Assembly: GCA_044892505.1 (NCBI GenBank)
Contig: CM097882.1
Location: forward strand, 531,030,001-531,094,000
Direction of reading: 5' to 3'
From: Schmidtea nova
Taxonomy: Eukaryota
DNA: 64,000 nucleotides
Numbering within the stretch: position 1 is the first letter of the stretch; each line of letters starts with the position of its first letter. The position numbers were made by a program, and so were the translations under genes. Under the pieces are notes generated by a model, which was not told the DNA's origin, ran no database searches, and saw only the letters and a program-made list of their open reading frames with translations. Below, piece after piece: positions 39,917-40,105 of this stretch.

Positions 39917-40105
39917 AGACCTTCTATCGGTCGAAACGAACCCGTAGGGGTGATAGGGGAATAGTTACTGCGAGGTGGCTCACCTGCCCTATTAACCTAC
40001 AACGGCCAGTACATTAACAAAGTGTGGCGCAGTTAGGGGCAAATCACGGGTACTAGCGCGGGGTTTACGCTTTTATGTTAGCGGGGTCATCACACCAACA
40101 TAATG
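39917..40105 (+). ncRNA. Motif Z structured element, copy in L11
   Basis: GTAGG/CCTAC, TGATAGGG/CCCTATTA, AGTTAC/GTGGCT and AGTAC/GTACT stems. Confidence 0.65.

Follow-up and report, generated by a model that had tools for sequence, protein, structure and literature searches.

A covarying RNA structure near the 3' ends of related long LTRs and its possible role as a leader domain

The closest described counterparts of the RNA considered here are leader domains that engage a tRNA primer. In HIV-1, according to the available text of PMC3675109, an 8-nt segment of U5, the primer activation signal (PAS), is at first masked in a stem; after the primer-binding site (PBS) has opened the T-stem of the tRNA, the segment pairs with tRNA nt 48-55. 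A PAS has been predicted 10 nt upstream of the tRNA-Pro PBS of HTLV-1, and is given as untested in the accessible portion of PMC11251516; Ty1 makes extended primer contacts and has a pseudoknot near its PBS (available text of PMC3592414). A second set of systems acts on RNA export, and the role of Rev, Rex and Rem in this process is summarised in the accessible part of PMC9143442. In its available text, PMC6431247 describes the Burro elements of planarians, giant Gypsy-like elements with a giant gag-env-pol polyprotein and a total length of over 30 kb.

Motif Z recurs at the 3' end of long LTRs in the 64,000-nt stretch of Schmidtea nova DNA that was analysed (the window). Like the HIV-1 PAS and its predicted HTLV-1 counterpart, as presented in the texts cited above, it includes a U5 segment that is predicted to complement the 5' strand of the primer's T-arm and to be partly masked in a stem, and that lies upstream of an 18-nt PBS. 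In contrast to the HIV-1 segment, it offers 7 nt to tRNA nt 50-56 rather than 8 nt to nt 48-55, and in contrast to the 10 nt of HTLV-1 it lies ~245-250 nt from the PBS, which it would approach only through three predicted helices. Neither in sequence nor in fold does motif Z resemble the leaders of retroviruses. The likeness to Ty1, within the available text of PMC3592414, lies in a 5' cis-acting domain (boxes 0/1/2.1, pseudoknot and PAL in Ty1), in extended primer contacts and a pseudoknot, both of them predicted for motif Z, and in candidate dimer or packaging sites. The Ty1 domain, however, is in GAG and mostly downstream of a 10-nt PBS, whereas motif Z is non-coding, upstream of the PBS, and contained in a 3.3-kb LTR.

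With Rev/RRE, Rex/RxRE and Rem, as covered by the accessible part of PMC9143442, and with Rec/RcRE, motif Z would share a structured RNA restricted to incompletely spliced RNA and a small Arg-rich protein encoded by the element and made from a spliced mRNA, here predicted. It differs from them in that no homology was detected, that it lies in U5, and that binding and export are candidate functions. RxRE and RcRE are located in the LTR. The family that carries motif Z resembles Burro in its long LTRs, accessory ORFs, RING domain, internal tandem repeats and AT-rich animal genome, but the available text of PMC6431247 describes neither LTR-internal ORFs nor RNA structure, and the polyprotein of the motif Z family is absent from the window; we treat the link as a lead only.

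Full-text literature searches returned no description of motif Z or of such a structure in long-LTR animal elements, and the available portions of PMC6431247, PMC8532177 (on Burro) and PMC12789967 do not describe it. No relative outside the window was found in GTDB genomes (exact-pattern scan, 0 loci) or in phages (blastn, no match), and a tRNA/tmRNA scan of the window gave 0 genes. A comparison with Rfam 15, which an earlier note on this DNA had proposed, gave 0 matches in the window at the gathering threshold; the best E-values were 1.4 around c6, 3.1 around c1 and 4.1 around c2. Motif Z is apparently an uncatalogued structured RNA and, by analogy, would appear to work like a retroviral U5/PBS leader domain.

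Seven copies in a family of long LTRs

The window is AT-rich (25-46% GC per 2 kb) and crowded with pieces of LTR retroelements; three RT-bearing ORFs match RVT_1/RNase H families. It also holds a near-perfect inverted repeat of 865 nt (99.7%) at 10879-11743 and an ORF at 62143-62679(-) that resembles a fragment of a Tigger/pogo-type DDE transposase. The hosts of motif Z are LTRs of ~3.3 kb that start with TGTTGGG, end in CCAACA or a near variant, and enclose two orphan ORFs, ORF-A and ORF-B (Table 1). The order is the same in c1 and c7: CCAAT/TATA ~375 nt into the LTR, ORF-A with AATAAA, ORF-B with AATAAA, motif Z, and the LTR end. After the LTR ends of c1 and c4 come 6 nt, the PBS and then a RING ORF. 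Upstream of c2, a TATA-like box, motif Y and AATAAA lie with motif Z within ~900 nt; this copy is without ORF-A and ORF-B, and its boundaries are approximate. No gag or pol of the family was found within the 64-kb window, in which the c1 internal region runs past the window start and that of c4 is interrupted. Positions 1-629, in the c1 internal region, hold two tandem-repeat arrays, as drawn for Burro elements.

Table 1. Positions of motif Z, its parts and the associated features in the window
Feature	Position	Strand	Remarks
Motif Z c1, group A	1916..2181	-	first base of GACCUUCU-like anchor at 2180
Motif Z c2, group A	8003..8262	-	anchor 8261; best-kept H3; 9-bp loop-loop pairing
Motif Z c3, group B	14476..14680	+	anchor 14477
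Motif Z c4, group B	15141..15312	+	anchor ~15142, 3-nt deletion; H3 apex deleted; LTR end 15410
Motif Z c5, group B	32936..33132	+	anchor 32937
Motif Z c6, group B	39917..40105	+	anchor 39918; the copy under study
Motif Z c7 5' piece, group A	49045..49102	+	anchor 49046
Motif Z c7 3' piece, group A	54396..54568	+	resumes at 54400, past the Gypsy-type insertion
H1 small hairpin and 5' conserved block, c6	39918..39944	+	CGG/CCG stem at 39928-39944
GAACCCG, c6	39938..39944	+	complement of tRNA nt 50-56; half masked in H1; PAS-like
H2 long hairpin, c6	39944..40000	+	lower stem 39944-48/39996-40000, middle 39951-58/39987-94
H2 internal loop GARU/CACCUK, c6	39959-62/39981-86	+	conserved
H2 upper stem, c6	39963-69/39974-80	+	GCGA cap
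H3, c6	40005..40057	+	stem 40005-12/40050-57, 8x1 bulge 40013-20, upper stem 40021-26/40043-48 half broken
H4, c6	40073..40103	+	UUAUGU-opened hairpin, short in c6
ORF-B, 187 aa, c6	39234..39797	+	YAG directly before ATG; AATAAA at 39796
ORF-A, orphan LTR-encoded protein	3890-3393(-), 47560-47907(+), 17984-18553(+), 36057-36419(+)		acceptor-like site and AATAAA in c1, c7
ORF-A fragments	7487, 13123, 19967, 31312, 38190
Motif Y, two-hairpin block, c1	4419..4505	-	ends in donor-like ACG|GU (4433)
Motif Y counterpart, c2	8520-8610	-	possible further counterpart 46780-46855(+)
PBS after c1, 18 nt	1895..1912	-	agrees at 16/18 positions with the 3' end of tRNA-Pro given in PMC5318995
PBS after c4	15417-15434	+	LTR end at 15410
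c1 5' LTR	5209-1919	-	motif Z copy c1 at its 3' end
c7 solo LTR	46075-54568	+	4-nt target duplication TTTA
RING ORF, first internal ORF after PBS (C3HC4 RING, PF13920)	1104..1565	-	after c1; YAG 3 nt before ATG
RING ORF homolog	15831-16240	+	after c4; internal stops present
Gypsy-type element	49103-54394		splits c7 inside H2; unrelated, ~5.3 kb, 5-6-nt target duplication

The two RING ORFs are 44% identical, and a protein search gave 0 matches among near-length proteins. Over the PBS and the next ~55 nt (1924-1844(-) and 15405-15484(+)), c1 and c4 share 82% identity, whereas their motifs are only 55% identical; this pattern fits either a conserved leader or a recombinant c4. A partial second PBS stands in c4 near 15490. 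Copy c5 continues into ~760 nt, 33157-33923(+), that match the antisense strand of the Gypsy RT region 28098-28876(+), and the final U5 bases of c4 resemble the start of this stretch. The Gypsy-type element within c7 has a 5' LTR of ~370 nt and a 3' LTR that is truncated; it carries long gag-like and pol ORFs, and its PBS is a different one. The LTR at 40356-40636 is related to its LTR and may have a partner at 42418-42742.

The earlier note had reported seven copies of the motif at sites across the window; all were found, and a covariance-model scan of the window added no eighth. The copies fall into two groups, A (c1, c2, c7) and B (c3-c6). A model-fitted alignment of the copies that are unsplit, six in number, shows the groups to be 54-60% identical to each other, the members of B 71-89%, and c1 and c2 84%. 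A covariance model trained on c3-c6 recovered c1, c2 and both c7 halves; beyond these it matched c4 on the opposite strand, with 11.5 bits, and six further places in the window with 6.8 bits or less. Among 32 windows of the c1 LTR compared with the c5, c6 and c7 LTRs, the 100-nt window with H1/H2 ranked top (56-73 vs 22-24 shuffled); against the c3 LTR it scored only 30 vs 23 shuffled, and an ORF-B window scored higher. The H3 window of c1 was near background against all four LTRs (c3, c5, c6, c7), as expected if stems change sequence but keep their pairs. LTR flanks are no longer alignable where motif Z still is. Copy c6 is among the more decayed, with 3/6 H3b pairs broken and no loop-loop partner.

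In the six copies that carry ORF-B, motif Z begins 97-259 nt past AATAAA, so that its position downstream of the poly(A) signal stands while the range of 120-250 nt given previously does not. Because it lies 3' of the ORF-B poly(A) signal, a predicted AATAAA, the assignment to U5 and to read-through RNA only is supported. A TATA-like word just 5' of motif Z, a potential second promoter, is present in c1 and c6 and is not conserved in the other copies.

Covariation confirms a structured RNA

Four helices make up the fold. Covariation in H1 is slight, with one two-sided change within group A and U.U in group B. The H2 cap is a GNRA loop in 5/7 copies, with three different sequences, the apical loop of H3 carries UAG..GG, and UUAUGU opens H4 in all copies. 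H4 extends the structure to the LTR end in group A, beyond the positions equivalent to 40105, which corrects the end point given earlier. Copy c1 has H4 closing at 1916, three bases short of the PBS, and the partner of the H3 loop sits in the H4 loop. The loops once described as invariant are conserved, although not strictly invariant: GACCUUCUAUCGG is exact in 3/7 copies, GAACCCG in 6/7, GGGARUAG in 5/7 and CUCACCUGCCC in 4/7. Read on the other strand, CUCACCUK (39979-39986 and equivalents) becomes MAG|GTGAG, which is close to the consensus of a 5' splice site, and the M position corresponds to its G/U variation.

Complementarity between the H3 apical loop and the H4 loop reaches 9 bp in c2, where 0.2% of 600 random segments do as well, and 6 bp in both c1 (4.2% of random segments) and c7 (8.5%). 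The pairing is weak in c3 (5+4 bp with a bulge, not the best duplex of c3; 36%) and absent in c5 and c6, and c4 is without the loop. It is clear in three of the six copies and well supported in group A only, where c1 and c2 are not independent. The H2 and H3 apical loops share no 6-nt palindrome of the Psi/DIS type. Among the roles suggested in the earlier note, the packaging or leader option fits best.

With registers anchored on the loops, 134/147 cells in 22 pairs are canonical and 11/22 pairs have two-sided changes, in agreement with the first observation that the stems change yet pair; the 22-pair table omits the lower H2 stem and H4, where indels blur the register, and c4 lacks H3b. Two-sided changes affect 5/6 H3a pairs and 2/6 H3b pairs. 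Copy c2 differs from group B in 10 columns, 9 of which still pair (P ~0.003 under random substitution), and its changes tend to hit both partners of a pair together (P ~1.5e-4). When c2 and c7 are set against the group-B pair, 18 cells changed on both sides, 16 of which pair, and 2 on one side, of which 1 pairs. A structure-blind MAFFT alignment gives 97% paired cells in H2, whereas slid partners give 37-48% and 0/500 shuffles reach that value; 6/12 pairs are two-sided. The model-fitted alignment, which is biased towards the model, gives 88% of cells paired and 19/34 pairs two-sided. The 22-pair table contains 11 G-U cells vs 3 C-A cells, an excess that favours sense-strand RNA.

Single-sequence folding z-scores are ordinary in 6/7 copies (-0.12 to -1.46); c4 reaches -7.0, and -6.0 on the other strand, and the method neither separated strands nor beat shuffles except in c4. 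The structured model exceeds a sequence-only model on c1 (65.7 vs 30.7 bits) and on c2 (46.4 vs 24.9 bits). We count this gain for c1 only, where the true model gains 20 bits over a decoy structure (65.7 vs 46.1), since on held-out c2 the decoy scores 45.8 vs 46.4 bits and the gain is largely an effect of the scoring mode. The ordinary z-scores, the parity of decoy and true model on c2, and the small number of related sequences favour a rival reading in which the copies share repeat ancestry only and the stems are chance or DNA-level inverted repeats. We consider this very improbable: two-sided changes dominate (18 vs 2 cells, with 16/18 pairing), G-U is biased to one strand, and the motif is alignable where its flanks are not. 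The covariation, which rests on seven related sequences, the same ones in which the helices were first seen, exceeds chance, and motif Z is confirmed as a real structured RNA.

The same anatomy bears on the new ribozyme class raised in the earlier note. A self-cleaving motif Z would cut from LTR to LTR and give a circular or unit-length template, by analogy with retrozymes and their hammerheads, and the conserved unpaired nucleotides, GNRA caps, loop-loop pairing and small-ribozyme size are compatible with this. It nevertheless strikes us as extremely improbable, in that no Rfam ribozyme family was matched, a cut in U5 would part R from the PBS in ordinary LTR replication, and the presence of TATA and AATAAA makes ribozyme processing unnecessary. 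Set by eye against the cores of hairpin, HDV, pistol, twister and CTE, motif Z showed partial word matches only.

Orphan ORFs, splice sites and regulatory alternatives

ORF-B is predicted to comprise a coiled coil, a disordered linker, an Arg/Lys-rich helix and a C-terminal helix. Its AlphaFold model, built with 5 sequences (pLDDT 74.9, pTM 0.30), places long helices in residues 11-94, a disordered segment in 108-140, a further helix in 144-169 and a short final one after it. In 4/4 copies tested, 9-12 of 20 residues in the basic stretch are K/R, and in c3 the frame shifts 5' of it. Sequence searches for ORF-B homologs gave 0 matches, protein-atlas matches were all under 0.9, Pfam had nothing above cut-off, and Foldseek against BFVD gave no match at E<=0.001. 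Stop-free frames run antisense to ORF-B in c6 (39230-39793(-)) and c3 (13871-14317(-)), with none of at least 120 aa in c1 or c7; they are probably a by-product. The homolog search with ORF-A gave 0 matches, and its structure model is unusable (pLDDT 39.6).

A YAG stands within 6 nt upstream of the ATG at 8/9 starts vs 13.5% of 1084 plus-strand ATGs, a count biased by the nine ATGs having been picked by eye and by the YAG of c3 and c6 being the in-frame bounding stop. Motif Y, 260-330 nt after the TATA box, is known from two sequences only (c1, c2), and its c2 copy has no Rfam match. The donor pattern occurs at motif Y in c1 and c2 only; c7 has none, and in five other LTR starts it is scattered. 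From these sequence patterns we infer a splice model in which one donor would serve alternative last exons and the internal ORF would be reached by skipping motif Z and the PBS. The acceptor-like sites before the ORFs suggest that motif Z would survive only in unspliced RNA.

The layout of ORF-B recalls Rev-type proteins by analogy only. In the main rival reading, motif Z might be a response element of the Rev/Rex kind: ORF-B, made early from a spliced LTR-only mRNA, would bind the internal loop of H2, which is irregular and rich in purines, through its Arg-rich helix and export or stabilise the unspliced RNA. Such a function, which could coexist with that of a leader domain, would draw on the basic stretch (9-12 K/R per 20 residues in 4/4 copies, in a predicted helix behind the coiled coil), on the confinement of motif Z to unspliced RNA if the splice model holds, on an H2 loop whose sequence is kept while the stems change, and on the need of retroviruses for export routes of this kind (PMC9143442, in its accessible part). 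ORF-B is without detectable homology, however, its basic stretch may be a mere NLS, c2 bears motif Z without ORF-B in cis, and the full-text literature search found no Gypsy element with a Rev-like response element; we regard the idea as possible but doubtful. Motif Z shows neither a palindromic DIS loop nor a match to a known ribozyme, and no homology of ORF-B to Rev, Rex, Rec or Rem was detected.

CUCACCUK, which we take to resemble the U1 5' end, could mask a donor. A poly(A)-suppression or splice-control element of this sort would let transcripts pass the ORF-B poly(A) site, and the placement of motif Z 97-259 nt past AATAAA throughout would suit it, as would the complementarity of CUCACC to the c2 donor over 6 nt. 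Foamy viruses, in the available text of PMC3694450, choose between LTR poly(A) sites via U1 and RNA structure. Yet both LTRs contain the motif, where it lies downstream of the cleavage site, its spacing covers a nearly threefold range, c1 and c7 do not share the donor match, and c1 and c4 show no conserved pairing to the post-PBS leader. We hold this role to be very unlikely, and the poly(A) suppression put forward earlier is disfavoured also because alternative last exons or U1 binding would be simpler accounts of read-through. CUCACCU can pair with a donor in a single copy and with the post-PBS leader in a single copy; neither pairing holds in the remaining copies.

The chance that motif Z is instead an IRES core, serving the internal ORF behind a ~3-kb leader that holds two ORFs, seems to us slim indeed. 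A multi-helix fold with a possible pseudoknot, 430-540 nt 5' of the RING ORF ATG, would be suitably placed, but no Rfam IRES family was matched, and an acceptor-like YAG precedes the ATG by 3 nt in each copy of the RING ORF, so that splicing suffices.

A predicted T-arm complement upstream of the PBS and the proposed leader domain

Returning to the leader domain, motif Z lies in U5, as judged from predicted AATAAA sites, and precedes an 18-nt tRNA-Pro PBS in only two of the seven copies, c1 and c4. The host primer tRNA is inferred from the PBS, whose positions 12-16 give the 5' strand of the primer T-stem as CCGGG. Extended by UUC, which is universal in the tRNA T-arm, nt 50-56 have GAACCCG as their complement. 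GAACC would fit most tRNA T-arms. Where GAACCCG is not exact, in the seventh copy, it is G-U-compatible; it is one of only 4 seven-mers exact in at least 6/7 copies and the sole one whose seventh copy still pairs. The chance of such a T-arm match is ~5e-4 under uniform composition, in a test made post hoc. The tRNA-Pro template in the available text of bioRxiv 10.64898/2026.08.12.744379 has the same T-arm as the primer deduced from the PBS.

The match is 7/7 to nt 50-56, with no pair to nt 48-49, and is thus displaced by one to two bases from the nt 48-55 of the PAS. CCG of GAACCCG is predicted to pair with CGG in H1 in 7/7 copies, and may be kept only by this pairing; an alternative 6-bp partner for GAACCCG is predicted in c3, c5 and c6 only. 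Some ~245-250 nt separate GAACCCG from the PBS, of which H2, H3 and H4 of c1 leave ~15 linker nt. GACCU is complementary to the tRNA-Pro variable loop but stands 5' of GAACCCG, in the wrong order for one antiparallel duplex, and was not counted; other short matches to the tRNA D-loop and acceptor stem, found by eye, were dropped as pattern hunting.

We suggest, with confidence that is evenly balanced, that motif Z is a leader domain of the unspliced genomic RNA for tRNA-Pro primer activation and packaging. As the sequence shows, motif Z follows the final internal poly(A) signal and runs up to the end of the LTR, with H2-H4 maintained by compensatory changes. Also in favour are the top rank of the H1/H2 window, the conservation of GAACCCG, the YAGs near the start codons and the retention of motif Z by c2, which has neither ORF-A nor ORF-B. 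The TATA box, ~375 nt from the LTR start, would set the beginning of transcription, and a donor near motif Y would be spliced to acceptors before ORF-A or ORF-B, as alternative last exons, or before the RING ORF; with splicing to those acceptors, motif Z and the PBS would remain only in unspliced read-through RNA. GAACCCG and the PBS are ~245 nt apart, and the folding of H2-H4 would take up most of this distance. Annealing of the PBS would then open the acceptor stem and the T stem in the primer, and GAACCCG, freed from H1, would pair with tRNA nt 50-56 and license the initiation of reverse transcription, by analogy with the HIV-1 PAS. Less firmly, the conserved internal loop of H2, the bulge in H3 and the pairing of the H3 and H4 loops may serve binding of a Gag-like protein and compaction or dimerisation for packaging. 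The earlier interpretation is partly supported overall, and helix H4, the H3/H4 loop-loop pairing and the GAACCCG complement of the T-arm are additions to it.

A broader and rather unlikely possibility, reached by analogy, is that an invertebrate LTR element independently evolved a circuit like that of complex retroviruses. One promoter and donor would give alternative last exons for two orphan regulators, ORF-B would bind motif Z and switch expression to genomic RNA, and the same domain would then gate tRNA-Pro priming.

The cis-acting leader RNAs of vertebrate retroviruses and yeast Ty have been mapped in detail, and motif Z adds a model backed by covariation, with three predictions: T-arm pairing, loop-loop pairing and ORF-B binding. 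If the PAS-like contact is true, priming gated by the T-arm would reach beyond retroviruses, and if ORF-B does bind motif Z, a Rev-like system would have had an independent origin.
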